From Bacilli bacterium (GTDB lineage Bacteria > Bacillota_I > Bacilli_A > ML615J-28 > CAG-698): a stretch of 64,000 nucleotides of DNA. The stretch spans positions 7,303-71,302 of the forward strand of contig JAZLLM010000085.1 in assembly GCA_045598145.1 (NCBI GenBank), in the 5' to 3' direction. The translations under genes and the position numbers were made by a program. Below are positions 35,007 through 54,800 of the stretch, piece by piece; positions within the stretch are counted from its first letter, which is position 1; each line of letters opens with the position of its first letter. Below the pieces are notes generated by a model, which saw nothing but the letters and a program-made list of their open reading frames with translations, made no database searches and was not told the DNA's origin.

Positions 35007-37439
35007 ATGGCAGAAAATATAAATGTAACTGGATATAAAAGATTTAAAGACTTTGAATTAGTTGAAAATATAGAAGATTTAAATCTTAGTAATTCTTTTT
35101 TTGTTGGTTACGATAGTGACGATCCAGCTAAAAAAGAATTTCAAGTAGCTATTGAAAATATTTTAAATCTAACAGAAGATACTAATAAAGTTAGTTTTCT
35201 TTATTTAGATTTAAATTTAGATATAACAAATGAAGAACAATTTCATCATGATATAGTTGACGAAGAAGTAAATGTTTACGAAATTGCTAACTTATATCAT
35301 AATAATTATAATGCATTAAAAGAAGCTATTGGTGACTTTCAAAGTCAAACCGCTCAACGTTTATGTCCAAAAGTTTTGCATGTAACATTTAGTGGTTCAA
35401 GTACACCAATAACAGTTATTCCAAATAATGCATTAGGACAGGTACATACTATACAAGGTACAACTACTCGTACATCTGATATGCGTGAAGTAGTTTATTA
35501 TTATCAGTATATAGATGGTAAATGGAAATATATTAGTATGTTAACCATACCTCTTGGTGGTATTGATAGTCATTATATTACTGACGTAGAATTAGTAACT
35601 AATGCTGATTCTTTTATAGGAAATCCTCCTTATCAAGAATGGAGATTTCGATTTGATGATGATACATATAGTTCTAATTTTAGAGTTTATAGAGGCAAAA
35701 ACGGTATTGCTCCAACAATTACTGCAAGTGCAATACAAGTTTCTGGCGCTCCTACTGTAAGTACTACAAAAGATGGTGATAATTATCATTTAACTTTTGG
35801 TTTAGTTAGAGGACCTCAAGGTGAGCCTGGTCTTACTGGACAAGATGGTTCTGACGGTAGTGACGGTGAAGATGGTGTAGGTATAGATACTATTACTACA
35901 GGTTATCACCTTGATAATAATGATGCTGCACATAAAACTATTGAACAATTAGATAATTTAGAATTTTATACAGCTCTTCCAAGTATTTCAGCAGCAAAAA
36001 ATACTTATTTATACACTCGTATTCTTGTTAATAAAACAGATAAAACTGTTGAAAAATATTATACTGAAACGTATATTCCTTCAACATCAACAAGTTTATT
36101 TGACGATCAATATTTGGAAGAAGTAAATTATTATGCTAATGGTGATTCTTATAAATCAAGCGATGTAACTAATGATGCTTGGAATAGTAATGTTGAATGT
36201 ACAGTAACGCCAGCTAATTTCTCTTCAAACGGCCCTTGGTTACGTTTTGAATGGAATTTGACATCATCTGGTAAAAAAATACAATATGTACAATTAACTG
36301 GTGTATTAAATAACACAATTAGTACTGTTACTAAATATAAAGAACAATCTACCCCATTTACTACAGTACCTACTTGTACAGATAATTTTAGTGATTTGAC
36401 ATTTACACAAGGTAATTGGATTGCTTCACAGACAAAAATTACTGATGCAAACGGTAATGAAGGATTGTTAACATCTATAAGTTATATTCCAGAAGATGGA
36501 GAAAAAGGCGATACTGGTGAGAAAGGCGATACAGGCGAAAAGGGAGATACTGGTGAAAAAGGTGAAACTGGCGAACCTGGTCAAAAAGGCGAAGATGGAC
36601 CATTTATTTTTAATCATAACGATAACACATTAAGAGGTAATACTGCTTCTACTGGTTATAATGCGACTTCTTTTGAAGGAAAAGTTATACGCATAAATGA
36701 TTATCATATTAATACACAAAGTGGTTCTTTTTATAAATGTACTTCTGTAGGTTCGACTAGCACTACTTGGGAATATTTAGGTTCTTTAATAGGACCTGTT
36801 GGTGCTATGGGACCTCAAGGTCCTCAAGGTTATACAGGTGCTCAAGGTCCAGTTGGTCCTCAAGGCCCTGCAGGTGCTGATGGTATTAACGGATTAAATG
36901 GTAATGACGGTAATGGTATTGCTTCAATAACTGGTCCTACAACTTCTGGTTTAAATGATACTTACACAATTAATTATACTAATGGTAATACTTCATCTTT
37001 TATAGTAAAGAATGGTGCAAAAGGTGATACTGGTGCAACTGGTCCTCAAGGTCCTACTGGTCCACAAGGCGCAACAGGTCCTAGAGGTAAAGATGGTATT
37101 AGTTTTGAAGATTATTTAATTCGTGTTGATTCTAATACTGTATGGGAACAACAGTTTACTGAAAATAATACTATATATTATAAACCACAAAGTGTTCGTT
37201 ATTTGAAAAATAATATAGATGTTTCCTTACCACCAATAGATTTAAATACAAATATAGACGCATCGTATTATGAAGAAACAAGTGCTAAAAATATTTTAAA
37301 TTGTATGGATTATGGTATGTGGGTAGCTAATTATAATACAAGTTCTTCTTATCCTTTAATGATGTATAGTAAATTAAATCCAGATTCTAGTAAAGAATAT
37401 ACTATGCGTGTACGTATTTATATAATGCCTGAAGAATAA
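35007..37439 (+). CDS. tail fibre protein with collagen-like (G-X-Y) repeats
   Basis: 810 aa. GEKGDTGEKGDTGEKGDTGEKGETGEPGQKGEDGP, GPVGAMGPQGPQGYTGAQGPVGPQGPAGADG and GAKGDTGATGPQGPTGPQGATGPRGKDG. Confidence 0.6.
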   Translation: MAENINVTGYKRFKDFELVENIEDLNLSNSFFVGYDSDDPAKKEFQVAIENILNLTEDTNKVSFLYLDLNLDITNEEQFHHDIVDEEVNVYEIANLYHNNYNALKEAIGDFQSQTAQRLCPKVLHVTFSGSSTPITVIPNNALGQVHTIQGTTTRTSDMREVVYYYQYIDGKWKYISMLTIPLGGIDSHYITDVELVTNADSFIGNPPYQEWRFRFDDDTYSSNFRVYRGKNGIAPTITASAIQVSGAPTVSTTKDGDNYHLTFGLVRGPQGEPGLTGQDGSDGSDGEDGVGIDTITTGYHLDNNDAAHKTIEQLDNLEFYTALPSISAAKNTYLYTRILVNKTDKTVEKYYTETYIPSTSTSLFDDQYLEEVNYYANGDSYKSSDVTNDAWNSNVECTVTPANFSSNGPWLRFEWNLTSSGKKIQYVQLTGVLNNTISTVTKYKEQSTPFTTVPTCTDNFSDLTFTQGNWIASQTKITDANGNEGLLTSISYIPEDGEKGDTGEKGDTGEKGDTGEKGETGEPGQKGEDGPFIFNHNDNTLRGNTASTGYNATSFEGKVIRINDYHINTQSGSFYKCTSVGSTSTTWEYLGSLIGPVGAMGPQGPQGYTGAQGPVGPQGPAGADGINGLNGNDGNGIASITGPTTSGLNDTYTINYTNGNTSSFIVKNGAKGDTGATGPQGPTGPQGATGPRGKDGISFEDYLIRVDSNTVWEQQFTENNTIYYKPQSVRYLKNNIDVSLPPIDLNTNIDASYYEETSAKNILNCMDYGMWVANYNTSSSYPLMMYSKLNPDSSKEYTMRVRIYIMPEE

Positions 37440-37450
37440 AATTATTTATT

Positions 37451-37843
37451 ATGCCTATATATAATAAAATACCAATGTTTTTCCCTCAACAAATTGTTTG
37501 TCAATATACTTTAGATGGTGGTGTGACTTGGCAAACATTCAATTATGATGAAAACGGCCAATATATCTCAGGACAAATATTTTCTAATAGAAAGTTTCGT
37601 ATTAGAATTTCAAAACCTAATTATATAAATAGTATTACTTATTATAATGCATATACACATCTTTGGACTACACTATTAGGCGGTTATTCATCTTTTGAAT
37701 ATGATACTTCTGATCCAAATTTTAATATCATTATTTGGAATTATAATGCCGATGAAGGCAAACAATTTAATACGGATGAAACTATTAACGATGACGAATG
37801 TTTATTTGTTACAAATAATACTTTTAATATTACTTTATCATAA
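37451..37843 (+). CDS. hypothetical tail-associated protein
   Basis: 130-aa ORF. Confidence 0.35.
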   Translation: MPIYNKIPMFFPQQIVCQYTLDGGVTWQTFNYDENGQYISGQIFSNRKFRIRISKPNYINSITYYNAYTHLWTTLLGGYSSFEYDTSDPNFNIIIWNYNADEGKQFNTDETINDDECLFVTNNTFNITLS

Positions 37844-38253
37844 TGTCCAGACCATATAACGATAATACTTTTGTACAATACGGTTTTGAAATAAATGCTA
37901 CAGCTCCAATCGATGAACGTTTTGTATTAAGATATCGTTCAGATTTAACCGATTCTAATAATTGGGATGAGCATCATCCTCTTTATAACGGCATTTTTAT
38001 TGCAGTAGTAGCAGATAGTATTCCATCTAACAATGGAATTTATATGTTATTAAAACAAAGTAAATATCGTTATTTTCGTGATCCGCAAGGAGGAGAATTG
38101 TATCATCCAGAAGGATGGATTCAAATAAATGCAACTAACGCTCCTGTTATATTAGATCAATATACAATTAAAGATGGAAATGCTGAATCATTAGACACTG
38201 ATGTACAACAAAATGGTTTACACGTAGTACGTGTAGATGGAGGAATTTTTTAA
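37843..38253 (+). CDS. hypothetical tail-associated protein
   Basis: 136-aa ORF. Confidence 0.35.
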   Translation: MSRPYNDNTFVQYGFEINATAPIDERFVLRYRSDLTDSNNWDEHHPLYNGIFIAVVADSIPSNNGIYMLLKQSKYRYFRDPQGGELYHPEGWIQINATNAPVILDQYTIKDGNAESLDTDVQQNGLHVVRVDGGIF

Positions 38254-38275
38254 TAATAACTTAAAATAAAATAAA

Positions 38276-39052
38276 ATGGCAAATACAAAAATAAATTTTA
38301 AACGTGGTGCACAATTATTTAATACAAATACACAAACTGCAGTAACTACATTAACGTTAACTAATTCGATGCGTTTTTGTGAACCTTGGGTTAATACTAC
38401 TGCAAAACAATTATGGGTGGATGATGCTTGTATTAATCCAAATCCAATAAGTACCAATAACGCATTAACTATTAACGAACCGTCATTATCATCAACTTCT
38501 CCTTATAGAGTTAGTAGGGCATTTACTATTAATATTAGCGGAGACGCAAATAACGCATTAGTACTTCGAGCAGATGGTTTATATTCGTCAGATACAAATA
38601 CACATTATAATTCAAAAAATATTATAACAAATACTACTAGTTCTATAACAGAAACTACTACAAGTTTAGTAAACGGTAATGTATGTTTAAATCATATAGA
38701 AAACGATGAAACAGCAACAAGTGGGCATCGTATTGTTGGTACTGGTGTTGCTACTGTTACTTGGAATGCAAGTAGTAATCAAATTGAAATTTATGCACCT
38801 AATCAGGAAGTTGGTGATATCTCTTTAGGTCGTTTGTGTGAAAATACTGGTCTTACAAGCGGTTGGTTTTATACTGGTGGTTTTTATGCTGGTGACGATA
38901 CCGATTCTTTAAAATGGGGTATTTATCATACACCAAGAGTAAATTCTGAAGGTTCATTGATTGAATTTAAACTTGGCGAAGCTAGCGATATAACTAATGG
39001 TAATGTACAAATTCAATGTAAAGTTACAATTATTGATGGAGGTACATTCTAA
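38276..39052 (+). CDS. tail fibre/tailspike paralogue A (shared N-terminal domain with 39052..40278)
   Basis: 258 aa. N-terminus MANTKINFKRG...CEPWVNTTAKQLWVDDACINP parallels the next gene's MATTTINLRRG...CEPWVNKKNRQMWIDGLCVNP. Confidence 0.45.
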   Translation: MANTKINFKRGAQLFNTNTQTAVTTLTLTNSMRFCEPWVNTTAKQLWVDDACINPNPISTNNALTINEPSLSSTSPYRVSRAFTINISGDANNALVLRADGLYSSDTNTHYNSKNIITNTTSSITETTTSLVNGNVCLNHIENDETATSGHRIVGTGVATVTWNASSNQIEIYAPNQEVGDISLGRLCENTGLTSGWFYTGGFYAGDDTDSLKWGIYHTPRVNSEGSLIEFKLGEASDITNGNVQIQCKVTIIDGGTF

Positions 39053-40278
39053 TGGCAACAACAACGATTAATTTGCGTAGAGGTGTAACTACTAATAGTG
39101 AATATCAATCAGATATTACAAGTTATATAAATCCCATTACTAATGAATATGCCATAAGTACTGTTTTATTCCATAATTGCGAACCTTGGGTGAATAAAAA
39201 AAATAGACAAATGTGGATTGACGGATTATGTGTCAATCCTTATTTACCAGGGTCTACTAATACTATTAGAAATGAATACGTTAACGATGAAAGAAGTAGT
39301 CAAGGTAATGAAAGAATACTATTGAAGAGTGAAGTTATTTTAAAACCAAATGGTGGAATTTTAGCTGACGTTAATGGACAAGGTTTATATATTGATGGAT
39401 CATATTTAACACATTTAACTGATTATTTTACAACAAGTGTTGATGGTATTGTACATTGTTATGACGATAATCATTCTGATTTACAAAATCTTAGTAAGGA
39501 TAGATTTTGGTTATCACATAAAAACACTTGGCATCAGTTCAATGCATTACAAATTACCGATAATTATTTTCATAACATAATGTTTTATCCTTATATAAGG
39601 GATAATAACGATACAGTAATAACAGTTTCTTCATCATTTAATATAACACCTGTGTCCTCTAATGTACTTGGTGGAACAATTAATTTGAAACAAGCAACTA
39701 CTACATTATTAGGTGGTGTTAAATTGAGTTGTCCTAATAATTTAACAGTTACGCAACCAGATTTCTTTGGTAATACGTATTATCCTATCGGTATGAATAA
39801 TACGACCGAACAAATATTCGCTATTGCTAGCAAAGCAACACCTGTAAATTTTGGTGTTGTTACAAGAAGTGGAACTAATAAAAGAAACGATGTTGTTGGA
39901 GATACTATTATAAGTAAGGCTACTATAGGTGATAGTGATATTTTAGTTGCTGAATTAGATGCTTGTAAAAATTGTATTACTTATTCTGTTGATGGTAAAA
40001 ATGTTTTTAAATTTTTACAAATCGTATGTGGTTTAAAAACACCGTATACTGAACATTATATTATATTAGATAATACAGAAAGTGGTAAAGATTTAGTATT
40101 TGATAATATTGAAATTATTGACAGAGACGGACGTGAGTTTGATTGCCATTTTCCGTATAATTCAAGTATCACAATACCTCCTTTAACATGGATGAAAATT
40201 ACAATATTGTTAGCGACAAATCCTACAGAAACACAATTTAAAGCGTATGTTACTTATAATTATGATACGATAAGTTAA
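39052..40278 (+). CDS. tail fibre/tailspike paralogue B
   Basis: 408 aa; conserved N-terminal anchor-like domain, divergent C-terminus. Confidence 0.45.
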   Translation: MATTTINLRRGVTTNSEYQSDITSYINPITNEYAISTVLFHNCEPWVNKKNRQMWIDGLCVNPYLPGSTNTIRNEYVNDERSSQGNERILLKSEVILKPNGGILADVNGQGLYIDGSYLTHLTDYFTTSVDGIVHCYDDNHSDLQNLSKDRFWLSHKNTWHQFNALQITDNYFHNIMFYPYIRDNNDTVITVSSSFNITPVSSNVLGGTINLKQATTTLLGGVKLSCPNNLTVTQPDFFGNTYYPIGMNNTTEQIFAIASKATPVNFGVVTRSGTNKRNDVVGDTIISKATIGDSDILVAELDACKNCITYSVDGKNVFKFLQIVCGLKTPYTEHYIILDNTESGKDLVFDNIEIIDRDGREFDCHFPYNSSITIPPLTWMKITILLATNPTETQFKAYVTYNYDTIS

Positions 40279-40309
40279 ACTTTTCTATAAATAAATAATC
40301 ACATTAATT

Positions 40310-40639
40310 ATGTTAATACAAGGTGATACTACTTCTATAAGTATAAAATTAAGTGAAAACTTAGAAAAAAACCAAGATATTAAAATTGGTTTTTATCGTA
40401 ACGATACTACACCAGTATATGAAGCATATTTAAGTGACAATACTGTTTTACAGCGTGTAGATAAACATAATGATAAAAATTTTATTTGTGTATTAACACC
40501 TGATATTTCGATGAAATTATTAGGCAATTTAGAATTTAGAGCTGTTATTTTTGATAAAAAAATGCCTTTTGTAAATTCGTCTGAAAATCATTTAGATGTA
40601 AATTTTAAACGTGCTATTGCAAATCGTAAATTAAAATAG
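40310..40639 (+). CDS. hypothetical protein
   Basis: 109-aa ORF. Confidence 0.35.
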   Translation: MLIQGDTTSISIKLSENLEKNQDIKIGFYRNDTTPVYEAYLSDNTVLQRVDKHNDKNFICVLTPDISMKLLGNLEFRAVIFDKKMPFVNSSENHLDVNFKRAIANRKLK

Positions 40640-40640
40640 T

Positions 40641-43600
40641 ATGGAAGTTAAGAAACAATTAATGAATATTAAAATTTCGCAACCTCAATTAAATATTGAG
40701 TTAGCTAAAGATTCTGAAGTTGTTGGAACTTTAGTATTTTCTCAATATTATAAAGGTGATGATGGTTCTAAAGGCGATAAAGGAGATAAAGGAGATAAAG
40801 GAGATACTGGTCCTATAGGACCTAAAGGAAACGATGCTGTAATTAACGGTAGAAATGTATTAAATATACAAGGTGGTCCTAATATTAATATTACACAGGA
40901 AGATGATTTGATGATTATTTCTGCAAGTGTAGCTACACAAAAACAAGCAGATTGGAATCAAACAGATTCTACACAAAAAGATTATATTAAAAATAAACCA
41001 TTACCATATAAATCGTTAGAAAAATTTACAGATTATACTTATAAAATCTATTGCGATTATTTAGATTATGAATTAGCTAAGAATTATTTTAATAATCCGA
41101 ATAATATTAATAGTATTGGTTCTTGTAGTTCTGTAAGAAAAAATAATTTATACGGACGTAATTACGATTGGATATATAACAATAGTGTCGATTTTGTAGT
41201 TTTTACTCCAAATCGATTAGGTAGATATGCAACTATTGGTTTTGGTGGTATATTAAACGAACTAACTGCTGATTTTGTTGAATCGAGAGAGTATTCAGAA
41301 TTATATAAAATTGTACCATTTAAAATTGTTGATGGTATTAATGAAAAAGGAGTTGTAGTTAATTCAAATGTGGTACCTAAACAAAAAGGTGAAACTACTG
41401 GTACATATCCTATTATTACAGAAAAACATAAGATATGTAATCGTATGCTACCAAGATTTATTCTTGATAATTTTGATAACGCTTATGATGCAACAGAATA
41501 TATAAAAAATTATGTATCTGTTTATAATCATTCAGATTTATCTGAAAATTACGGTTACGATTTGCATTTTATGGTAGGTGATAAAACATCTACTTATCTG
41601 ATTGAATTTGTCAACAATACTACTATTGTAACAGATATTTCAGAGAAATCTTTTATGACTAATTTTCACTTAAACGGTGTCAATTTTAATGAAGATGGTA
41701 GTGTATATACACCTTACGATAAAAACTTAGATTCTTCACACGATGCTGTAATAGTTAATCGTATTGAAACACACGGTTCAGGTCTTGAAAGATACAATTT
41801 AATTAACACAAACTATTCTTCATTAGAAGATGAAGAAGATATGCGTTCTTTATTAAACTTATTAACTTATACTAACACTTATAAAGATGCAACAAATCCT
41901 CGTTGGTATACTGAAGGCGTAGGAGAAAATGAATTTTACGATGTTACAGTTAATTCGCCTATAAATATACATCAAGAAGTGTATAGTATAATGAAAAGTT
42001 TATATCAAACACGAAATCGTAATACTGGTTTAACTTGGCAAACTATTCATAGTTGTATATACGATATTAATAAAAAAACAGTTAAAGTAATTTTTCAAGA
42101 AAACAACGAAGAGTTTACTTTTGATTTTGAAAGTGAATATTTTGAAAAAATATCAAATAAAGTTACTAGTTGGAGTCAAACTACTACAGATACACATTAT
42201 CCTTCTGAAAAACTTGTAAAGGATAATTTGGACACCAAAGTTATAGAAGCTGGTGAGGGAACAAATTCGGCGATACAAATAAACTTAGCCAATTCCGCAA
42301 CTGGTATGGGTGCAATTGCAGTTAACGGTTCAAACTCGGCAAGTGGAGATTACTCCCTTGCAGAAGGTTCGCACACATGTTCAACGGGACGTGCAACGCA
42401 CGCAGAAGGAAACACTACACTTGCAAGTGGCGATTATTCTCATGCAGAAGGCGCTGGTTCTGGGGCTATAGGGATTGCTTCACACGCGGAAGGAAACGGA
42501 ACATCAGCCCAAAACTTTGCCGAACACGCTGAAGGTAGTCACAATGTTACACACATAGACTCAGATGAGTTTGGAAGTTCTGGAAACACCATCCATTCCA
42601 TAGGCATAGGCACAGGTCTTCAGACTGCAAAAAACGCCGTTGAAGTAATGCAAAATGGAGACGTTTATATAATTGGTGTTGGAAATTATGATGGTTCGGA
42701 CATATCATCGTCTAATAGCATACAGAACGTTTTAGACGGAAAACAGGACACTATTACCGACTTGGATGACATACGTAGCGGTGCCGAAAAGGGAGAAACA
42801 GCCGTACAGCCCTCAGTATTGGAAGACTATGATACAAGTTTAGAAGTAGACAGCAAGATATCAACTCATAATAGCAGCAGTTCTGCTCACTCTGATATTC
42901 GCGGAAGTATAGAGGCTGTGAATAGTGTGATACCCTCGCAGGCATCACAATCAAACCAACTTGCTGACAAAGACTTCGTAAACTCATCTCTCAACAGCAT
43001 TACTGCGTTCTATATTACAAAAGACGCACAAGGAACTCAGTTTTCTACAAAAGCACAATTAGACAGTACAACTGTATTTTATTCTGGAGGAGAAGTCAGA
43101 GTCCCGACACGCAATGACTACTGTATAGTTCTTGCAGACGAGACGAAAACTGACCCTGTTACAGGCGAGAATCCTACAACGAGATACGTATATCAGAATG
43201 GTTGGGAATTTCAATATATAGTCAATAAAACTACTCTTACCGCTACACAATTTGCTGCAATAAACAGTGGCATCACAAGCGGAAAGGTAACTCAGTATGA
43301 CGGCTATGCAACAAGCAAGCAGGACAAAATAAACGACCTTGCAACTATTAGAAGCGGTGCTGCTGCTGGTGCAACGGCATATCAAAAGCCTCCAACTGGC
43401 ATACCTGTGACTGACTTGGCTACAGGTGTGATTCCAGACGTTAGTGGTAAGGAAAACACTTCTAACAAAGTAACATTGTTTCAGAATATACCAGACAACA
43501 TCCATTATCCCACCGAGAAACTTGTATATGACAGTCTTGCGCAAAAATTAAGCACTTACGACTTTACATTCTTATCACTTGATAAGAATACCACATCATT

Positions 43601-43880
43601 CACTTTTTCTGCCAACCAACGTTGTTACCAAAGTGTCAACCTCTCTGCTGGCGCTACACTTACATTTGCGGTCAACAACAAGGCTGACAACTACCTGAGA
43701 ATCCATAATACGGGAAGCAGTGAGACAACAATCGTGATAGGAACAGTTACTTATAATTCAACAACCCAGACGGTTATCAAGCCCGCAGAAATCAAAGTAG
43801 GCACAGGCAAGTACATTGAATTGTCAGTGATAACTGATGGCACAACGGCTATATTCACGGCAAGTTCAGATTTACAATAA
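40641..43880 (+). CDS. large tail fibre with collagen-like repeat and Hep_Hag/YadA-like Ala-Gly repeats; C-terminal part in GC-richer DNA
   Basis: 1079 aa. GDDGSKGDKGDKGDKGDTGPIGPKGNDA near the N-terminus. Repeated (S/T)HAEG(N/S) and NSA.G..A motifs around residues 540-640. From ~42.2 kb the nucleotide composition shifts to visibly higher GC. Confidence 0.55.
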   Translation: MEVKKQLMNIKISQPQLNIELAKDSEVVGTLVFSQYYKGDDGSKGDKGDKGDKGDTGPIGPKGNDAVINGRNVLNIQGGPNINITQEDDLMIISASVATQKQADWNQTDSTQKDYIKNKPLPYKSLEKFTDYTYKIYCDYLDYELAKNYFNNPNNINSIGSCSSVRKNNLYGRNYDWIYNNSVDFVVFTPNRLGRYATIGFGGILNELTADFVESREYSELYKIVPFKIVDGINEKGVVVNSNVVPKQKGETTGTYPIITEKHKICNRMLPRFILDNFDNAYDATEYIKNYVSVYNHSDLSENYGYDLHFMVGDKTSTYLIEFVNNTTIVTDISEKSFMTNFHLNGVNFNEDGSVYTPYDKNLDSSHDAVIVNRIETHGSGLERYNLINTNYSSLEDEEDMRSLLNLLTYTNTYKDATNPRWYTEGVGENEFYDVTVNSPINIHQEVYSIMKSLYQTRNRNTGLTWQTIHSCIYDINKKTVKVIFQENNEEFTFDFESEYFEKISNKVTSWSQTTTDTHYPSEKLVKDNLDTKVIEAGEGTNSAIQINLANSATGMGAIAVNGSNSASGDYSLAEGSHTCSTGRATHAEGNTTLASGDYSHAEGAGSGAIGIASHAEGNGTSAQNFAEHAEGSHNVTHIDSDEFGSSGNTIHSIGIGTGLQTAKNAVEVMQNGDVYIIGVGNYDGSDISSSNSIQNVLDGKQDTITDLDDIRSGAEKGETAVQPSVLEDYDTSLEVDSKISTHNSSSSAHSDIRGSIEAVNSVIPSQASQSNQLADKDFVNSSLNSITAFYITKDAQGTQFSTKAQLDSTTVFYSGGEVRVPTRNDYCIVLADETKTDPVTGENPTTRYVYQNGWEFQYIVNKTTLTATQFAAINSGITSGKVTQYDGYATSKQDKINDLATIRSGAAAGATAYQKPPTGIPVTDLATGVIPDVSGKENTSNKVTLFQNIPDNIHYPTEKLVYDSLAQKLSTYDFTFLSLDKNTTSFTFSANQRCYQSVNLSAGATLTFAVNNKADNYLRIHNTGSSETTIVIGTVTYNSTTQTVIKPAEIKVGTGKYIELSVITDGTTAIFTASSDLQ

Positions 43881-43899
43881 CAATTAAAGACACAATATT

Positions 43900-44424
43900 A
43901 TGGCAGTAATAAACGAACCAAGATACTATTACTATTTCGTCACTCACTTATTTGGCAGAGTGACCATTGAGAAATTTATCACCCCGATGCTGCTGCTCGG
44001 CTACGAGGCACTAACCGATGAACAGGTTGAGTTCTATTTGGCAAATCCGACAGCTTCGGTTGAAGAGGTGCGGAAATGCGAATTGGACCCGCCTTATGTG
44101 CCTCCTGCACCATCAATCATACAACTGCAAGAGGATGCCAAACAACAGCTGAAAGAGGCATACATTGCCAAGATGAACAGATACAGCGATTTGGATGTTG
44201 TTGGGGCAATATCAAGCCACTATGCGCTCATAACACTCACCATTGGCGACAATGTGCCATACACGTTGAGCGAGGCAAAGAATATCATTGAAGGCTTCAA
44301 TTCGCTAATGAAGTCAGCAAAGAAGGTTTACGATAAATACTATACCTTATTGGGTGAGCAGATGACACAGGAGGCCATTGACAGCACATTGGAGGCTGGA
44401 CTGGCGGAAATGGAGGCGTTATGA
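43900..44424 (+). CDS. putative tail fibre assembly/chaperone protein
   Basis: 174 aa, directly downstream of the fibre gene, GC-richer. Assignment by position only. Confidence 0.3.
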   Translation: MAVINEPRYYYYFVTHLFGRVTIEKFITPMLLLGYEALTDEQVEFYLANPTASVEEVRKCELDPPYVPPAPSIIQLQEDAKQQLKEAYIAKMNRYSDLDVVGAISSHYALITLTIGDNVPYTLSEAKNIIEGFNSLMKSAKKVYDKYYTLLGEQMTQEAIDSTLEAGLAEMEAL

Positions 44425-45083
44425 GGAGAGGGTATAAAATAATAGAAGGCGAGCTGTTGCCGCCATTTGCAGAAAACCTCGTGTTTTGGGCTCCGCTGAC
44501 GGAAGGCGATTTGACTGACCATATTAGCGGAGTTGAACTTAAACATACCGATGAATCGTATGTTAAGTATGATAGTTCAATGAACGCATATCAGTTTTTC
44601 AAAAAGAGAAAACCAGACTACAACGGATGGGACACAAGCATTCTTTTTGATGCCGTCAACTTTCCAAAAGGTCTTAAAAAAGAGGCCACGCAAGGATATA
44701 CAATTACTGCGCTATGCAAGAGGTCTTATATACAGAAATATAACTATCCTCCTTACGTGGTATTGGGATTATACACCAACAATGATACTTGGCGACCAAG
44801 TATTGCATTCAGTAATGATGAGCCAAGCTCTATAAAAGAACAATTTGCGAGAAGGACTTTTGTATATGACAACGGAATTGCCAAGCGTTTCATCAACGGA
44901 GAATTGGTTTTGCAAGGCAATTCTGAAAGTCTAGCTAATTACATTTCTCAAAATACTGACGTTGGTAACTATATCGGTGTTAATCTTGACAGAGATGGGA
45001 AGGATACGAATCAAAAGCCGTGGATTGCAGACATAAGAATCTACAACCGCGCGCTCACAGCCTCGGAGGTGGCTCAATTATGA
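44421..45083 (+). CDS. LamG/concanavalin-A-like lectin domain protein
   Basis: 220 aa. C-terminal signature WIADIRIYNRALTASEVAQL matches the LamG-type jelly-roll motif (..DE.RIYNRALSA.EI). Confidence 0.5.
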   Translation: MRRGYKIIEGELLPPFAENLVFWAPLTEGDLTDHISGVELKHTDESYVKYDSSMNAYQFFKKRKPDYNGWDTSILFDAVNFPKGLKKEATQGYTITALCKRSYIQKYNYPPYVVLGLYTNNDTWRPSIAFSNDEPSSIKEQFARRTFVYDNGIAKRFINGELVLQGNSESLANYISQNTDVGNYIGVNLDRDGKDTNQKPWIADIRIYNRALTASEVAQL

Positions 45084-45706
45084 GAATGAATTACAAACAG
45101 CAGGAGCAAATGTTGGATTACACAATACTGACAGCAATAGTTGGAAAATCAAACCCAAAAACGGCTCCATTTATTGATACGTTATATATTCCGAATAATG
45201 AGACTGGTATATATCTTGATATGTCAGATCTATACATTTCGAGTACAGACTTTAATTTCTTCGGTTGCAAAAACAATGATGGAGACAGTGCGAGATTCAT
45301 GCTCAACGCATCGAACGGTAAGTTTTGTTTCGGCTTCAATACATTCGCAGTCACTAACGAGATTATCGTAGACCGGCAGGTAGTGGAGATGAATTTTGGC
45401 AATGACAGAAAATTCAAAGTGGACGGTGCTAATTTGGCAGCATTGCCGTCAAGCCTCCCAGCAATGCTACACCCAATAGGTATTATGGGTTCAATTCAAT
45501 ATTACGATAATCAAAGAAATAATGGATATGATTATGCAATATATAGCGTGAAAATATCACAAGGGACTAATATTGTTCGTGACTTTGTCCCGGCAATAAG
45601 AAATGCAGATGGAAAGGTCGGAATGTTGGATGTTACTGGACACAATTCAAGCAACGGGACTCCGTTCTTCGAACCCGTAAGAAATACTTTTGATTATATA
45701 CTTTAG
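45080..45706 (+). CDS. hypothetical protein (GC-richer cassette)
   Basis: ATGA overlap with the upstream stop. The track's 45020 start lies inside the previous gene. Confidence 0.4.
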   Translation: MRMNYKQQEQMLDYTILTAIVGKSNPKTAPFIDTLYIPNNETGIYLDMSDLYISSTDFNFFGCKNNDGDSARFMLNASNGKFCFGFNTFAVTNEIIVDRQVVEMNFGNDRKFKVDGANLAALPSSLPAMLHPIGIMGSIQYYDNQRNNGYDYAIYSVKISQGTNIVRDFVPAIRNADGKVGMLDVTGHNSSNGTPFFEPVRNTFDYIL

Positions 45707-45919
45707 CAATATGACAATCAAACTCAATATCAATATCAGAAATATCATCTCAGCCATGCTGATAGCATTATCGGCAGCGGCAATGCTTACATTGGCAATG
45801 CGCACGGAAAGAACCGCTGCGTTACCAGCAACATCAACTATGCAGTGGCATATGGACACCTGCTGGGGGGGATGGAGGAATATTAATTATTAAATTATTA
45901 CAATCAGGACGGAAGCACG

Positions 45920-46534
45920 TTGTCTATGCTAACGCAACTCGCAACACATCCTGACCTCAAGTACAGCACAGACAAGGTTAATTGGACTCAATGGCAGTTT
46001 ACCGCAGATGAAGAAGACTCTATGGCTGACATCATCACGCTTGACGAAGGTGAGAAGGTGTACCTCAAGGGCATAAATCCTAACGGATTTGCAAAACTTG
46101 AAGAAGATGGTGTATCTGTATTTGTGATGACTGGAATTATTGCGGCGAGCGGTGATATCGGAACCATTACAGACGAGATTGGCGGCGCAGACTGTGTTTT
46201 GGCTGATGGTTGTTATACTGCAATATTTAGCGAAAACACCTCTTTAACTGTCGCACCGTCACTGCCTGCAACTACACTTGCTGAAGGTTGCTACATTGGA
46301 ATGTTTAGCGATTGTACATCACTAACCGCAGCGCCAGCATTGCCAGCAACTACATTGGCGGACAGCTGCTACGAGGAAATGTTCAATAATTGTACCTTCC
46401 AGATGAGTGACGATGGTACGACATTCAACTTTGACTTTGGTGCAACATTACCGCAAACGGTAGGTGAAGATACGTTTAACACTCACAAAGATGTGGCAAT
46501 TTGGATGGAAAATACAAATGGATTTAACGAATAA
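45920..46534 (+). CDS. hypothetical protein with internal SLT(V/A)AP.LPATTLA..CY repeats
   Basis: 204 aa; three near-identical ~19-aa repeats. Confidence 0.4.
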   Translation: MSMLTQLATHPDLKYSTDKVNWTQWQFTADEEDSMADIITLDEGEKVYLKGINPNGFAKLEEDGVSVFVMTGIIAASGDIGTITDEIGGADCVLADGCYTAIFSENTSLTVAPSLPATTLAEGCYIGMFSDCTSLTAAPALPATTLADSCYEEMFNNCTFQMSDDGTTFNFDFGATLPQTVGEDTFNTHKDVAIWMENTNGFNE

Positions 46535-46545
46535 AAATCAATGAT

Positions 46546-46635
46546 ATGAAAGTAACAAAACCAACAAAGACGCAGATGAAGAAGGCTGCAGAGAAAGCCG
46601 CCAGACTACGCAAGGAAAGAAAAGGAAGAAACTAA
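46546..46635 (+). CDS. small basic ORF (29 aa)
   Basis: MKVTKPTKTQMKKAAEKAARLRKERKGRN; at end of the GC-richer block; speculative. Confidence 0.2.
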   Translation: MKVTKPTKTQMKKAAEKAARLRKERKGRN

Positions 46636-46726
46636 TCTTATAAATAAAAATAAATAAATTATAAAAAATATTTTTATTTAATCTAATTATTTTTTTAACA
46701 ATCTTGTATTTATACTATTTTATTAG

Positions 46727-46734
46727 TATATTTG
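46727..46734 (+). promoter_or_regulatory. Bacteroidetes-type -7 promoter element TATATTTG bracketed by a 10-bp inverted repeat
   Basis: TATATTTGCAAG, ~36 nt upstream of the ATG at 46771. AACAATCTTG (46697-46706) and CAAGATTGTT (46735-46744) flank it. Confidence 0.4.
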
Positions 46735-46770
46735 CAAGATTGTTATTTTTTTAATTAAAATAAAAAATTT

Positions 46771-47538
46771 ATGAGTACATTTCGTCAAATGGTTTATATG
46801 GTATTAGACCATAACAAATTAAGCGGAGATGATTCTTATGTTGAACCAGAACACGTTATTTATATACTTTCAAAAATAAGAGCTTATTTATTAACAACAA
46901 AGTATAAACAATTATCGTCTCAAGTTGCTAATTCAAATTTTCAAACTATATGTGTTCCATTAGAACGTATTGATGATAATATATCATCTTGTATAGACGG
47001 ACAAAATTTTTATATAGTACGTAGTACTAAAAAAATTCCAAATCTTTTAGAATTAGGGAGTAGTAATGTAACTATTATACAGCCTAATGGTACGTTTGGA
47101 ACCAATTTAAATTATAATTTTATTGGACGAAATAGATTCAATTCGATAGTTTTTAATAAATGGATGCGTAATCAAAATTATGTTACAATAGGTCCAGATA
47201 ATTATTTATATATTAAATCACCCGATGAAAATATTTTATTAATGGATAGTATCACATTAAATGGTGTATTTGAAGATATCGAATCTGCAAGTCAATTAGT
47301 ATGTCAAGAATGTACTGATGGAGAAATTATAGAAAATGATTGTGATATATTAGATAGTAATTTTCCTTTAGAGGAGGGATTAGTAACTTCTTTATTGCAA
47401 ACAGCTATTCAATTCTTTACCACAATGGCTGTTCGTTCTAAAGATAATACTAATAATGCAACTGATGATTTAAGCAATATAGAACGTTATTTGAACTCAA
47501 TCATTAAAGAACGTTATAGACAATATGGAGAAAATTAA
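46771..47538 (+). CDS. hypothetical virion protein
   Basis: 255-aa ORF. Confidence 0.45.
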   Translation: MSTFRQMVYMVLDHNKLSGDDSYVEPEHVIYILSKIRAYLLTTKYKQLSSQVANSNFQTICVPLERIDDNISSCIDGQNFYIVRSTKKIPNLLELGSSNVTIIQPNGTFGTNLNYNFIGRNRFNSIVFNKWMRNQNYVTIGPDNYLYIKSPDENILLMDSITLNGVFEDIESASQLVCQECTDGEIIENDCDILDSNFPLEEGLVTSLLQTAIQFFTTMAVRSKDNTNNATDDLSNIERYLNSIIKERYRQYGEN

Positions 47539-48868: not shown

Positions 48869-51800
48869 ATGGCATTTAAAACAGATACTTATATTATAAA
48901 AGGTATGCGTCAAGATACTTCAGATGCTGTATATGATACTTCATTTGCATTTGAAAATAAAAATATACGTATTGATGCAAGAGAAAATAATACTTCTTTA
49001 AGTATTGTTCAAGAAATGGGCAATGAACAAATTCAAAAAATTAATTTATACAATGATATAAATTATACATCTTTGAATACAGAATTATCTTCATTGCCAT
49101 TTACTGTTATAGGTCATTGTGAAATTGATAAATATTGTGTATTATTTGGTAAATCGTTAGATAATGATATCATTGCGCGTTTGGAACTATTAAATGGTAT
49201 TTATCAATTAGTATATTTATATAACGGCAACTTATTAAATTTTGATACAGAGCATCCAATAGAATGTATTGCTAATATTGAAACCGAGCAAGTTAAAAAA
49301 GTATATTTTGTTGATGGTAAAAATAAACCCAGAGTAATTGATATTAATAAACAATACGATACTACAAATATTGGTAATATTAATTTAGGATTTCATTTGC
49401 AGTTAAATGAAAAGTTTACTGTTGAAAAAATATGGCAACATGGTAATTATCCAGGAGGTAAAGTTCAATTTGCTTTTAGTTACGTTAATGATCAGGCAAC
49501 AGAAACTAATTTGGTCGAAATATCACCAATGTTTGATTGTACTGCTACGCATAGTGGTTTGAGTAACACTACAGATAATTATTCTGAACATTCATTCGTT
49601 ATTAATATTGAAAATTTAGATACCCAATATAATTTTATTCGTGTATATTTATTTATGACTACCTCAGCTGGTACAACAGTAATTAAATACATAGAGCGTA
49701 ATATTGAAAATATTGAAACATTTACTGAACGTATAGATTATGACGAAATTGATTTAATTAACTATAGTGGAACTTATTCAGATTTAATCGGTAAAACATC
49801 TTGCATTATACCATATACAATTGCTTCTAAAGATAATTATTTATTTTATGGTAATATTAAAGACGGTTTTCCTGATTTAACGTTATTTAAATTTAACGAA
49901 AATGATTTTAATTGTAAATTTACTTTAAAATCTATAGGTAAAGAAACATTTAAAGATAATTTAGTATATCAGTACGATCCTAAAGATACAACGTATCAAG
50001 GTTCTAATTTTGAGTATAAAGGTTACCGTAAAGATAATTGGTATAGATTTGGAATTATCGCACAATATGAAACAGGTCAATGGTCCGATGTTTTATTTTT
50101 ATGCGATAAACAATGTGATAAAACCAGTAAAACATTAGTACATTATACTAACGATAATATACCATTATATACTGAATATTTTATTCCACGTTTTCAAATC
50201 GAATGGACTTCTTCTGGTAAAGAAAAAATTGAATATTTGTATAGTTTAGGTTTTCGTAAAATTAAACCTGTTTGTGTAGTACCTCCACAAAAATATCGAA
50301 ACGTTTTAAGTCAAGGTATTGTAGCACCAACTATGTACAAAGGTGAGAATCGTTTAAAAGAAAATTTAAATAATAAAACTTTTGTATTCCCTTCATATTT
50401 TTATAGACCGAAACCATTAACAAGTCCATATTCTAAAATAATTGATAAAACTACAAACAATGTAATTGTAAAACCAAATTACATATATACTATTCGTAAT
50501 GTCAGAGATTTAACTTTACGTAAAAATTATTCAGACGAAAATGGAAATGGATTTTTAACTAATCCTACTTTTACAAGACCAACAGATACTATTCGTTTTA
50601 ATGCTCCTTATAGAGAATACAGACACGGTTTTAGTTTACCACCTAAAGATACATTAAACGCAGAATTTGAATTTAGCGAGTTATCATTAAATGAATATTT
50701 TTTTATGAATGATGATAATTCAATTAATAAGTTATTTATTGACGGAAAAAATTCTACAAATATTTTAGCTGGAATGTATGGAAATAATAATATGAGTGAT
50801 CCTAAAGATACGAATTTTGATGAAACATTTCATTTAAAAATTTTAGATGCTGGTATATTTAATACTAATTTTCCAATATCAGAAGCAAAAGATTCAATGT
50901 TGCCTAAAACATTAACAACCAATTGTTATAGTGATACAATATTTATTGATGAAAGTGTTTGTACATTTAATTCTCCAGAAGTAGATTTAAACGATATGTT
51001 TATTTCTAATATAAAGTCACAATTAGACAATTGCGATATTAAAGTATGTGGTTATGCACAAATAACAAATAGTTATACAAGAATGAATGCAGCTTCCACA
51101 TACTTTCAAAAAGATTCAAGTATTTTCCAAGGAGGAAGTTCTGATATTGGAAGACACTTATTTAGTATTCCAGAAAGTGATAATAATGATATTAAAAAAA
51201 TATTAGAGTTTACAAGACGCATAAATACGCCAAATCAGCCACTATCTTATCACAGTGGACCATTTTATCTTAGTCCGATTAAAGTACTCGGATATCGTGG
51301 TTTAGACGGCAATTATGATGCAAAACCATATAATATTGATATTGCTGATGTAATATGGGAGGGACATAATGATTTTGAAGAATATATTTGTCCAACCTAT
51401 AGTGATTACGAATTAGAAAATAATGCTCGACATCTTTCAAAAACATATTTTAAAGATAAAGACGGATTGTCATTTGATATTAGTTGGCACGGTGAATTAA
51501 AACAACGTAAACAAAAATTAATTATTTCTAATGACACAGCTTTATTGTTATTTCAAGGAGGTGTATCAGATAGTAAATATTATATTTTATTTCCACATGA
51601 TTTTTATACACAAGATGCAGGTCGTTATACAGCATCTCTTGTGTCAAAACATATAAGAGGATTATACACAGGTTTAACGTTAAATACATTAAGTAAATTT
51701 AAACTTTGGGATAGACCAGAAAATGTTTGTAATCTTTCATTAAGACGTTATGATGAACCAACAGTAACATTATCTGTTGAAAACTTTGGTGATAATAGAC

Positions 51801-54800
51801 CTATATATCAAAACCCATACGATAAAGTTTATTACTTTAATGATTATAATGAAACTATACCATTTCACAGAACATTATATAACGAAGATGAATGGTACTG
51901 TTTAGGTTATTATTACTTCTATCCTTATTATTTAAAAAACTTTACTTATTATCGTAGAAACGAATTACCACCAATTTGTCCAATGATTTTACCGTTGGTT
52001 ACAAATTCAATTAAAGACAGCTACTATTTTAAAACAAGTAATTTTACTAATATAGATAAGTTAGTAGAAAGTCATTTTAATGACTGTATGGAAATAAACG
52101 AATACGGTTGTCATTACTATATGCCATTTTCAACAGTATTTCCTCATTCAGCTTTTGATCCGTTATATTTATGTGCTACGTATCCTTTTATGCACACAGA
52201 CGAATATGTAGGATTTAATGGCAATAGTTCAGCTTATAATGGGGAATATGTTCGTCCGTTATATAATACAACATCTTCAGTTTTATATTCCAACGTAACA
52301 AATTATTTTGAACCGATTGAATCTGAAACAATACAAGATTTTTATAACGCTGCTGAAGGAACCGATATTACTTTTGATAATATTGAATGGTTAAAACATA
52401 ATAATACTTATACTACATTACGTTATAGTTATGGTATTGAAAATAATAATATTGTTTGCAAATCAAACACGTTACCGTTAATTGCTGCTACTAAATGGTA
52501 TAGGGGTTTTACTACTTATAAAAATATTGAAGAAGAAAGCACTGTTATGTTAGGTAATCCATTGACATATGCAGAACTTTATGGCAATGTTATGTTTAGT
52601 GGCTTATTACCTCAATTATATACTAAATGCGGTTATTTACCACATTTATATTTTGATGGTACAAATGTAGGTACTGGTGAATATTATTGGAAACATATAC
52701 AAAATTATAATACAATCAAATTGAATTTTAGAAATAAAATATCAGCAAATAAAAGTTTAACATGTGAATTAAATAATACTATGTCTGCCCATATAATATT
52801 TACTAATAAAAATAAAGTACAGTTGTTACCGCAATTTAAATTTAACAACAATTTATTAGAAATAATCGATGATGATTTAGACCTAGATGATATTTTACAT
52901 AATGCGCAGCATAAATTATTCATAAATAATGAACTATCATTAAATGATATTGTTCAGTTCCAATCACATTACTATTATAAAGTATTTATACACTTATATG
53001 ATTTTTATTATCAAGATAATAATGCAAAATTATGCTTAAGACCGTTTGAAGAATACGACCAAGATTTAATTATTAATTTTGCAAATGCTCCTTATTTAAG
53101 TATTTATCCGCATACTGGTAAATGGAGAGAAATATCTGTTAAACCGCTAAATCGTTCAAGTTTTAAATTACCATTCTGGCGACATAATTATAGTATTAGT
53201 AATAACGAATTTAATAATTCTTGTTTTAATTATGATAGGGATTATAAAGAATATAGACATACACAAGTATTAGATAAAGATAAAGAATCATTATTAATTT
53301 ACGATCAAGAAGGTAAAGAACGTAATATTAAAAATTATTGGTTATTACAAATAGCAAATATTTATAATAATGATATAGAAGGTAATCCTTACATTACCGA
53401 CGAAGGATTGTCTGTTAATACTTGGAATTGGATGCCGTGTGGATATTCTGAAAATATTAACAATATATTATCTAACAACTTTACAAATAGTTTTCTTATA
53501 TTTGATGAAGGAGATACATATTTCCAAAAATATAACAGTATGAAAACTTTTGCACATCCTGGTCAAAATCGTAAGAATGACGTTAGTGAAGTTGCATCAG
53601 TAATGATAGAATCGTATATTAACCTTGATGGATATTATTTCGATTATGACGAATTAAAAAATATTGATAGTAGTCCGTTAACCTTCCCAGAAGAATCTAA
53701 ACAAAAAAGTATTAATCCTGTATATTCTTTATCGGATGATTATATGACTTTATATCATCAAATAGATACCAACTATCAATCAGCATATTTAAAAACGTTT
53801 CCTACACGTATTATGTGGTCATTACATAAAACAAATGGAGAAGCTATTGACAGTTGGGGAATTATACCTGAAATTAATACTTTTGATACTATAGGTGAAT
53901 GTGGAGCTATACATAAATTAGTATCATTTAACGATAACGTTTATTGTTTACAAGAGCATGGTTTGTCTTTATTAGATTTTAATAGTAAATCTTTAATTGA
54001 ATCTTCTACAGGTAATCCAATTTCAGTTTATTTCCAAGAAACATTAAGATTGCAACATAATACTTATTTTAGTAGAACTGTTGGTACTTTAAATAAATGG
54101 TCTGTAATTGTTGCGAAAAATGGTATTTATTGGATAGATGATACATTGAAATCATTTTATCGTTTTCCAGCAGATAATAATTCTATGACTCCATTAGATT
54201 TATCATTAAGTATGGGATTTAAATCTTGGAGCAATAATACGTTTGGCATCGATAATACTTCTTGGACTTCAAATATATTTATAAACTCTAATAATATCAA
54301 ATCTTTTAAAGCAAATTATGATTATAAGAATAATGATATTTATTGGGCAAATAAAGATATTTGTATTAATTTTAATGAATTATTCAATTCATTTGTATCA
54401 TTTTATAGTTATAATAATATACCTTATATCTTTAATTATAAAGACAACGTATATTCTTTATTATATAATGATGACCAAACCGATTTATATTTGCAATTTG
54501 CAAATTATAAACATAAACTATATAATAAACCTATTGAAAGTTATATTGAGTTGTTAGTTAATCCTGCACCCATATATGATAAAGTATTTAACTTTATTGA
54601 ATATGGTACAGAATGTTTCTATACTGAAGGTGAACAAAAAGATTTTATAATACCTTATAAAAACGCTTATAATAAATTATATGTTCGTAATTCATTTCAA
54701 GAAGGTTTATTATCATTTGATTATCATAATACTCGTGAAAAATTTAGAGTATGGCGTACCGAATTACCTCGTGAAAATGGAACAATAAATCGTATTAGAA

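Follow-up and report, generated by a model that had tools for sequence, protein, structure and literature searches.

A GC-rich island in a Crassvirales phage, probably a fibre end, a chaperone-like gene and accessory genes acquired from unrelated tailed phages

Does the distal half of a phage tail fibre, together with the genes behind it, belong to the genome in which it lies? The question is raised by contig JAZLLM010000085.1 (assembly GCA_045598145.1, a Bacilli bacterium), of which a stretch of 64,000 nucleotides (nt), here called the window, was analysed. Within a fibre gene of 1079 amino acids (aa) the guanine-plus-cytosine (GC) content rises abruptly, and it falls again about 4.4 kb downstream. 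We propose that recombination with unrelated tailed phages brought in the distal 560 aa of the fibre and the accessory genes downstream of it, a reading to which we give a probability of roughly 0.82. Judged by its genes, the recipient is a Crassvirales phage with a backbone of 28.5% GC: the open reading frame (ORF) at 29634-31085 matches the Crassvirus major capsid family PF23898 (E = 8e-189) and that at 48869-54931 the muzzle protein family PF25731 (E = 7e-134). Its lineage is far from those described, since the ring protein 2 of crAss001 (gp40), IAS virus and the cr-series genomes shares no more than 32-38% identity with its own. The features on which the argument depends are the following.

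42229-46615, plus strand: the GC-rich island as a whole, 42% GC
40641-43880, plus strand: chimeric tail fibre gene, 1079 aa, with an N-terminal half of backbone composition and a C-terminal half of foreign composition
40641-41000, plus strand: fibre aa 1-120, N-terminal anchor with a (GDK)n collagen-like stretch and the linker QADWNQTDSTQKDYIKNKP
41001-42131, plus strand: fibre aa 121-497, N-terminal nucleophile (Ntn)-hydrolase domain (AAT/CBAH-like), AT-rich like the backbone
42140-42229, plus strand: linker motif SNKVTSWSQTTTDTHYPSEKLVKD, fibre aa ~501-530, the presumed crossover and left edge of the island
42354-42536, plus strand: five 14-aa xxAEG repeats, a YadA-head/Hep_Hag-like beta-roll shaft, locally 48-51% GC
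42897-43331, plus strand: shaft domain DKDFVNSSLNSITAFYITKD, fibre aa 753-897, widely distributed
43440-43550, plus strand: 37-aa insertion, fibre aa 934-970, relative to the fibres P0001 and P0002 in pairwise alignments
43554-43877, plus strand: fibre tip, aa 972-1079, the putative receptor-binding end
43900-44424, plus strand: 174-aa protein (o174), DUF4376-like tail-fibre chaperone candidate
44421-45083, plus strand: LamG/ConA-like lectin, a single domain of 220 aa, its start overlapping the o174 stop (ATGA)
45080-45706, plus strand: 208-aa protein (o208), its ATG at 45080 overlapping the LamG stop
45711-45893, plus strand: 60-aa membrane protein, its single hydrophobic helix at the N-terminus and its TMQW..DTC.WG.GW tail conserved
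45926-46534, plus strand: BspA-type leucine-rich-repeat (LRR) protein, 202 aa, ~3 repeat units, with a 78-nt tandem repeat
46546-46635, plus strand: lysine/arginine-rich 29-aa ORF MKVTKPTKTQMKKAAEKAARLRKERKGRN, read from the sequence and of uncertain status; last GC-rich stretch, with the change point at 46615 inside it

The compositional break is pronounced. Between 42230 and 46560 the GC content is 42.2%, against 28.5% for the remaining window, and all other segments of 4.33 kb average 28.9% (standard deviation 2.2, maximum 34.4), giving the island a z score of 6.1. Maximum-likelihood change points fall at 42229 (from 27.4 to 42.9%) and at 46615 (from 41.9 to 22.7%). On the 1-kb scale GC climbs from 27% to 40-44% across 42-46.5 kb and returns to 23-26%, and on the 200-nt scale both steps are sharp. 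The shift is strongest at synonymous positions: GC at third codon positions (GC3) goes from 0.12 over the fibre's first 520 codons to 0.35 over its last 559, stands at 0.54 in o174, 0.40 in the LamG gene, 0.38 in o208, 0.49 in the 60-aa ORF and 0.40 in the LRR gene, and is 0.125 in ring protein 2, the next gene after the island. All six island ORFs lie at 0.35-0.54, compared with 0.08-0.23 in backbone ORFs, and the composition is fairly even along the island, with no backbone-like DNA between its genes. An earlier note, made from the letters of the sequence, had let the GC-richer DNA begin in mid-fibre at about 42.2 kb and revert at about 46.6 kb (46640); both borders agree with the change points, the first of which corresponds to about aa 520-530 of the 1079-aa ORF, and the composition plots that the note had suggested, far from uniform, show sharp differences in GC and GC3. 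Its count of four downstream ORFs was too low, as there are five and a 29-aa ORF, the extras being the 60-aa membrane protein and the 29-aa basic peptide.

Protein content does not account for the GC shift. Homologues of the shaft domain (aa 753-897) have 31-35% GC in phages of 30-32% GC (L001-L012), and the collagen-rich 810-aa fibre of the same phage (35007-37439) has a GC3 of 0.10; since composition thus follows the resident genome, the island copy is out of place. The contigs that carry relatives of the island genes have GC contents of 45.5% (L042), 47.3% (L043), 40.8% (L046) and 41.5% (L076), and the relatives' own genes have a GC3 of 0.35-0.47, with the exception of the L042 LamG gene (0.21). 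An amelioration test found that substitutions in the window copy are not consistently biased towards AT, except in the segment related to L046, whose counterpart there has a locally higher GC content.

The fibre's halves differ in their relatives as well. Residues 1-520 and 521-1079 were searched separately against 5.8 billion proteins, as the earlier note had advised, and returned different sets of homologues, which argues against a single history of the whole fibre. The N-terminal half found 246 proteins, nearly all of them (about 240, phage-borne) on the Ntn-hydrolase domain at aa 121-497, and no homologues of aa 1-80 among the matches listed. The C-terminal half found 2659 proteins at E <= 0.001, of which the best 120 are described here: aa 501-701 match P0006 best (83% aa identity), aa 659-1079 match P0001 and P0002 (59-62%), and aa 740-900 are 60-77% identical to dozens of fibres. 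These relatives carry varied tips (Phage_tail_C, BppL_N, fibre repeats), as modular fibres would. Loci with the shaft domain number 41 in IMG/VR and 13 among genomes, spread over many host phyla, with up to 77% aa identity, and L043 matches the window at 86.1% nt identity over 510 nt (42930-43439); the best match of the shaft domain in the genome collection is a Prevotellaceae metagenome-assembled genome, a weak hint on the host. The tip is 74% identical to the C-terminus of a 359-aa fibre in L076 and ~62% identical to P0001 and P0002, distant copies of it end two small L046 proteins, and it has no Pfam or PDB sequence match. The domain order Ntn domain, shaft, tip recurs in another natural fibre, P0002. 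Among GenBank phages the C-terminal half has only a 27% partial match, in the crAss-like cr131_1, and nucleotide searches of GenBank phages with the island and its surroundings found nothing; among the relatives sampled, nucleotide identity peaks at 83-86%, along no more than 570 nt.

The left junction can be placed closely. L046, the contig of P0006 (41% GC), aligns with the window at 82.9% identity over 566 nt (42140-42704). Along the first ~60 nt, which encode SNKVTSWSQTTTDTHYP, the similarity is weak and the window is AT-recoded up to ~42203; from GAAAAACTTGTAAAGGAT (42204) onward the two are ~85% identical, with a perfect match of 19 nt at 42204-42222. Because this change in similarity at 42204 and the GC change point at 42229 both fall there, we place the crossover within the conserved linker SNKVTSWS..THYPSEKLVKD. 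A second copy of the linker, SNKVT..HYPTEKLVYD (~aa 956), lies in the 37-aa insertion, and short conserved linkers of this kind are plausible recombination sites. Downstream of the junction, the repeats SLAEG, THAEG, SHAEG, SHAEG and EHAEG stand at aa 572, 586, 600, 614 and 628 with a strict 14-aa period, and aa 566-640 match phrog_25468. Several homologous fibres carry the YadA_head family PF05658, for which the window fibre itself scores E = 3.2; despite the period and the motif, we therefore speak of a resemblance to YadA_head, not of demonstrated membership. The (S/T)HAEG repeats of the earlier note are thus real, as five xxAEG copies, and their Hep_Hag-like character is not significant by Pfam.

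What follows the fibre in the window follows it elsewhere too. In L042 (a 38-kb contig) and L043 the order is fibre, 174-aa gene, LamG gene of 214-215 aa and 57-aa ORF. L076, which has myovirus-like baseplate genes, carries the 359-aa collagen-plus-tip fibre, then the closest 174-aa homologue, one ORF like the LamG gene of the window, three Laminin_G_3 genes and a small membrane protein; it aligns with the window at 70% nt identity over 952 nt (43587-44533). The order tip, 174-aa gene, LamG, small membrane protein is thus found in L042, L043 and L076, and the LamG gene is syntenic in these three and in L046. None of the crAss hallmark genes occurs at the relatives' loci within the stretches fetched (flanks up to 10 kb).

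The 174-aa gene travels with the tip. Its homologue always lies directly after the tip-bearing fibre, in L042 and L043 (57-58% identical) as in L076 (69%), and the identities of tip and o174 covary (74% and 69% for L076, ~62% and 57-58% for L042 and L043) with the genes adjacent in all cases, which is as expected of a putative cognate pair. Only 41 representatives of this small family occur among 1.84 billion proteins, and two of 34 members match PF14301 (DUF4376; best E = 9e-7); tblastn of o174 against GenBank phages gave no match. An AF2 model built with the 34-sequence alignment is confident (pLDDT 94.9, as compared with 43 when the alignment is left out) and consists of strands at residues 10-15, 21-26 and 35-37, forming a beta-hairpin region, followed by six helices. 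Fold searches of the PDB returned generic helical bundles only. Among the 50 matches listed from the viral predicted structures of BFVD, nine are DUF4376 proteins with template-modelling (TM) scores of ~0.3-0.5, six of them with a probability of at least 0.96; those at ranks 3, 4, 9, 13 and 14 have E values of 2e-3 to 9e-2 with modest TM scores of 0.34-0.51. DUF4376 is the tail-fibre chaperone domain of Alteromonas phages V22 and A5, whose chaperones combine a helical body with beta-hairpin 'tentacles', resemble intramolecular chaperone domains and move with their fibres between unrelated phages (PMC10579305). Because of the DUF4376 fold matches, the linkage to the tip and this Alteromonas chaperone architecture, we accept o174 as probably chaperone-like, the best reading of the predicted fold and the one the earlier note had proposed; of the structure prediction that it had called for, the part on o174 gave a confident model of DUF4376-like architecture.

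The lectin named in the earlier note was borne out by Pfam: residues 133-218 match Laminin_G_3 (PF13385) at E = 5e-8 and 33.6 bits, above the cutoff of 27.6, and a profile of the protein and six relatives matches the LamG/CBM40 sialic-acid lectin structures 4qvs (E = 5e-7) and 4c1w (E = 4e-6) in the PDB. Compared with the L043 copy, the first ~37 and last 16 residues are nearly identical and the core is ~20-30% identical, which suggests that the lectin cores may be exchangeable in the manner of cassettes. Runs of ORFs of 200-236 aa follow the fibres in L046 (nine, three with Laminin_G_3) and L076 (four, three with Laminin_G_3); free-standing ORFs of this size lie at 44421-45083 in the window, 4671-5315 in L043, 6825-12709 in L046 and 8522-11098 in L076. 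The next gene, listed as an ORF of 228 aa, more plausibly starts at the ATG at 45080, giving 208 aa. It belongs to a second small family, being 25% identical to L046 12095-12709, itself paralogous to L046 8219-8848, and L042 and L043 lack it at the corresponding place; searches of Pfam, PHROG, the PDB and (by tblastn) GenBank phages found no match. As a relative of LamG it was tried and rejected, hhalign of the two families being negative.

Homologues of the 60-aa protein, of 57-60 aa, also stand after lectin genes (L042 12859-13032, L043 ~5330-5500, both 57 aa, and L076 ~11113-11298); in L042 an endolysin gene comes next. The 202-aa LRR protein has 1853 homologues, many with PF13306 (LRR_5; 37-77% identical). 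Its best full-length relative, P0276 (49%), lies on a 27-kb phage contig of 51% GC without other likeness to the island. The earlier note had counted three SLTxAPxLPATTLAxxCY repeats; repeats are present, but only two of the motifs are full, and of the three 26-aa CYxxxF units the first is incomplete.

The stem to which the foreign end is joined has a history of its own. PHROG tail-fibre matches cover aa 38-126, with a collagen-like repeat at aa 39-63 (Pfam/PHROG), and the linker DWNQxDxxxxDYIKNKP (aa 103-119) recurs at module borders of P0001, P0002, P0121 and P0124. The Ntn domain (aa 121-497) matches P0121 (63%) and P0122 (60%) best; the P0121 locus (L044) has a myovirus-like module upstream (sheath, tape-measure protein, Gp10_C baseplate) on a contig of 38% GC. 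The window fibre reaches 21.8 bits for Pfam AAT (cutoff 23.2), and homologues up to 63% identical carry PF03417 or PF02275. Residues C162, R173, D176, N341 and R384 are 98-100% conserved in 120 homologues, which implies a probably active enzyme in the fibre stem. Its activity would need a predicted self-cleavage at Ser161/Cys162, which would divide the fibre into its virion anchor and the remainder. In the literature we found no paper tying the AAT/CBAH family of Ntn hydrolases to tail fibres. The Ntn module is common to foreign phages yet fully AT-rich here (GC3 0.12), as would be expected if the stem were the older, resident part and the distal replacement came later.

The features neighbouring the island are:

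35007-46534: fibre block, with collagen-like and several fibre-like ORFs, the last of which is the 1079-aa ORF
40310-40639, plus strand: 109-aa ORF directly 5' of the fibre, of backbone composition (GC3 0.11)
46695-46737, plus strand: backbone promoter-like box, a 43-nt motif (TTG.A.TT.A..N..TATATTTGCAA) between the island and ring protein 2
46771-47538: ring protein 2 gene, PF25702 (CrAss_Ring_2), E = 5e-34

After the island the gene order of fibre block, ring protein 2 and muzzle is restored. At least three other fibre-like proteins are encoded at 35007-40278, all of backbone composition; the 810-aa fibre has three collagen stretches, and proteins of 258 and 408 aa have the N-terminal motif I.(F/L).RG...CEPWVN in common. 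By tblastn the 109-aa ORF is 25% identical over 102 aa to L076 6592-6885, just upstream of the L076 fibre, and appears from this similarity to be a distant relative of the ORF there. The right end of the island coincides with the end of a transcription unit, ~60 nt before the promoter-like box. The same 43-nt box occurs at 9498-9540, 16065-16107, 27672-27714 and 46695-46737, and its TATATTTGCAA end is similar to the Bacteroidota -7 element TAnnTTTG; between 40 and 47 kb, scans for promoter and terminator consensus sequences gave matches at chance level only.

The acquisition that we propose would have drawn on tailed phages of host-like composition, ~41-47% GC. The left crossover would have taken place in frame within the fibre linker, and the right end would lie at the end of the transcription unit, just ahead of the backbone promoter of the ring-protein gene. 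Three affinities can be distinguished in the imported DNA: the YadA-like repeat shaft is closest to L046; the promiscuous shaft domain, the tip, the DUF4376-like chaperone, LamG and the 60-aa protein are closest to L042, L043 and L076; and the LRR gene has another affinity (L047). The resident N-terminal anchor would hold the fibre on the crAss virion, while the imported tip, folded or capped by the co-transferred chaperone, would together with the lectin-type proteins set the glycan or host strain that is recognised. The data show the break in composition, the distinct homologies of the parts, the conserved gene order and the fold of o174; from them we infer the direction and timing of the transfer, the recombination mechanism and any effect on receptor binding and host range. 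When the earlier note spoke of a recently exchanged receptor-binding module, it was essentially right as to exchange and mosaicism; a recent date, to which only the lack of amelioration speaks, and a role in host range would be further steps.

Several observations weigh against this interpretation. No donor of more than 86% nt identity was found, and direction and recency therefore follow from composition only. Close relatives of the backbone were not found in IMG/VR, JGI metagenomes or GenBank phages with the fibre N-terminal half and ring protein 2 as queries, so no lineage with a different or absent cassette was seen at this site. In none of the fetched loci do the o208 and LRR genes stand with the tip module. 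Family assignments fall short for three of the proteins: the PF05658 match of the fibre is not significant (8.7 bits), o174 itself has no Pfam match at E <= 0.01 and so none to PF14301, and the LRR protein itself has none even at E <= 5, PF13306 included.

The contig might instead be an assembly chimera, in which a fragment of a GC-richer phage was misjoined at a k-mer common to the fibre linker. The left junction does lie in a motif common to foreign fibres, where 19 nt agree perfectly with L046; the sequence comes from just one NCBI contig of 74.7 kb, every cassette protein is a singleton cluster, and related phages co-occur in one sequencing project (SRR21150xxx-SRR21151xxx). Such an error would, however, require two independent misjoins, the right one at a junction without shared sequence, after which the contig resumes the same backbone in the expected order of fibre block, ring protein 2 and muzzle. 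Moreover, the fusion is in frame and yields a complete 1079-aa fibre with anchor, shaft and tip, which would have no distal end without the island, and the domain order of the imported part matches that of the natural fibre P0002. We regard a chimera as decidedly unlikely. It is more improbable still that nothing was transferred and that local selection on resident genes, through Gly/Ala-rich repeats, expression or codon adaptation, raised their GC. The YadA-like repeats are Gly/Ala/Ser-rich and reach 51% GC, and the highly expressed capsid gene is also somewhat GC-richer (36%, GC3 0.21), but the shift is largest at synonymous third positions across six consecutive unrelated ORFs, its borders are step-like, and the 83-86% nt identity is to foreign contigs. 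The collagen-rich 810-aa fibre, with its low GC3, and the AT-rich shaft homologues of AT-rich phages argue in the same direction.

A variable part that starts inside a fibre ORF and is followed by a chaperone also recalls the Sc/Sv arrangement of Mu, and the Mu G and P1 C segments start in the middle of a fibre gene and carry a chaperone. Diversity-generating retroelements (DGRs) that target fibres are known in crAss-like phages (PMC12386605). Programmed switching of an invertible or shufflon-like segment, or targeting by a DGR, is nevertheless hardly credible here. The invertible segment was rejected on strand, repeats and invertase: the island ORFs all lie on one strand, with no alternative tip and chaperone set on the other, the only inverted repeats flanking the island are 26-nt matches at 77%, no more than chance would give, no island segment is repeated elsewhere in the 64 kb, and no recombinase was seen among the ORFs scanned, in an annotation of the window that was not exhaustive. 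The DGR target was rejected because there is no template/variable repeat pair within the 64 kb and no reverse transcriptase among the same scanned ORFs. How many events brought in the island is a separate matter. That the whole 4.4 kb came in a single event from one donor with this gene order is possible, if doubtful. The even composition without backbone-like DNA between the genes, their tight packing with stop/start overlaps (o174/LamG and LamG/o208) and the natural occurrence of LamG-type and o208-type arrays after fibres (L046, L076) are in its favour. Yet no fetched locus has the same gene combination, o208 breaks the adjacency of LamG and membrane protein kept in L042 and L043, and the nearest relatives differ: L046 for aa 501-701, L043 and L042 for the shaft, L076 for the tip and chaperone, L047 for the LRR gene. 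Because its segments differ in nearest relatives, we regard the island as composite, a mosaic that is not shown to be one block from one donor; the differences between segments are also compatible with a donor that was already mosaic.

Acquisition by recombination from unrelated tailed phages makes the island a clean new case of the well-known exchange of tail-fibre modules with co-transfer of a chaperone, here in Crassvirales. Fibre mosaicism is textbook knowledge, and it is the 14-point GC contrast that makes this case conspicuous. For most crAss-like phages hosts and host-range determinants are unknown, and a delimited foreign cassette points to the specificity genes; it also shows abundant gut phages drawing on the fibre repertoire of unrelated co-resident phages. 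The junction linkers and the pairing of tip and chaperone are practical guides for engineering or predicting host range, and the island points to uncharacterised families (the 174-aa chaperone, the LamG arrays, the 208-aa protein and the 60-aa membrane protein). A bolder version, which we hold only tentatively and think rather improbable, is that a Crassvirales phage of virulent type captured a whole distal host-recognition kit from a myovirus-like or siphovirus-like source onto a stem whose Ntn-hydrolase domain is catalytically intact. The kit would comprise shaft, tip, cognate chaperone, free-standing lectins and small membrane protein, from donors with the GC of bacterial hosts. If this is true, genes would often cross from other phage orders into crAss-like phages, entering at defined linker 'sockets', and the fibre would have an undescribed enzymatic architecture with exchangeable lectin cassettes whose ends are conserved and whose cores are variable.

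The window holds other elements apart from the island. At 15018-15078 on the minus strand lies a candidate type III hammerhead ribozyme whose catalytic core is complete (42.9 bits against an Rfam gathering score of 48.5; local E = 1.6e-8). Its 32-nt core is identical in 13 IMG/VR contigs, mostly of ~95-101 kb, 35-36 nt are identical in the crAss-like cr53_1, cr131_1 and cr272_1, and changes in stem II are compensatory between contigs. Upstream of it, as read on the minus strand, a GC-rich element of ~650 nt (15380-16030, both strands, up to 51% GC) is situated at a strand switch and GC-skew minimum. It is dense in long hairpins and folds better than shuffled sequence, with z scores of -20.8 (minus strand) and -17.0 (plus strand); two complementary boxes, GGGGGAGTGGGTGGG and CCCACCCACCCCC, enclose it, and a 148-aa ORF inside it (15885 to 15439, GC3 0.58) matched nothing in Pfam, PHROG or GenBank phages. 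Three 42-nt and three 27-nt iteron-like direct repeats at 15199-15411, close to the cumulative GC-skew minimum (~14.0-15.0 kb), are a possible replication origin. A second small GC-rich island (18951-20000) contains an HNH endonuclease ORF (19060-19665; HNH_3 E = 1e-5, GC3 0.38) flanked by weak tRNA-like matches at 19008-19084 and 19913-19983 (~30 bits each), which ARAGORN did not call. In the AT-rich early region, adjacent minus-strand ORFs of 138 and 149 aa (6967-7829, GC3 ~0.40), without informative family match, are probably another foreign insert. The Ntn-hydrolase stem, the conserved hammerhead and the structured GC-rich element seem less ordinary than the fibre exchange.

Set beside known systems, the parts of the island are familiar and their setting is less so. 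The fibre repeats share with the YadA head (Hep_Hag, PF05658) a 14-residue period, small residues and five xxAEG copies, but they stand in a phage fibre shaft, not in a trimeric autotransporter, and match the family at E = 3.2. Like the LamG/CBM40 lectins (PF13385, PDB 4c1w), the 220-aa protein passes the Pfam cutoff and its family profile matches those structures; unlike them, such proteins here are free-standing (~210-220 aa) and form tandem paralogue arrays after fibre genes (L046, L076). The LRR protein has the signature LPxxxLxxxCYxxMFxxCTSLT of BspA-type repeats, and its homologues carry PF13306, but at 202 aa and ~3 units it is truncated relative to the typical 320-350 aa and falls below Pfam detection.

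As for the arrangement as a whole, classical tail-fibre mosaicism is said to have been described by Haggard-Ljungquist and colleagues in 1992 for Mu, P1, P2, lambda and T4. As in those phages, the breakpoint lies inside the fibre gene, a constant N-terminal part serves virion attachment, and the C-terminal part is exchanged together with an adjacent assembly gene. The protein families differ, no invertase system was seen here among the ORFs scanned, and a strong contrast in composition between donor and recipient makes the event visible without comparison genomes. Within the same phage order, crAss-like phages show DGR-driven fibre diversification and polymerase swapping (PMC12386605). Both that system and the island concern adaptation of host recognition; the island is a wholesale replacement of a module, not targeted mutagenesis, and neither a reverse transcriptase among the ORFs scanned nor template/variable repeats in the 64 kb were found. 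The nearest parallel is the host-recognition module of tail fibre and DUF4376 chaperone shared by Alteromonas phages A5, V22 and P24 (Gonzalez-Serrano et al. 2023, PMC10579305). There as here, a distal fibre and the chaperone downstream of it travel together across phage morphotypes, and the o174 model repeats the helical body and beta-hairpin of the Alteromonas chaperones, with DUF4376 proteins found by fold search. In contrast to that system, sequence kinship is not detectable and o174 lacks a PF14301 score; the recipient here belongs to Crassvirales, the transfer is marked by a 14-point jump in GC, and the module adds lectin-type, LRR and small membrane proteins to the pair of fibre and chaperone.

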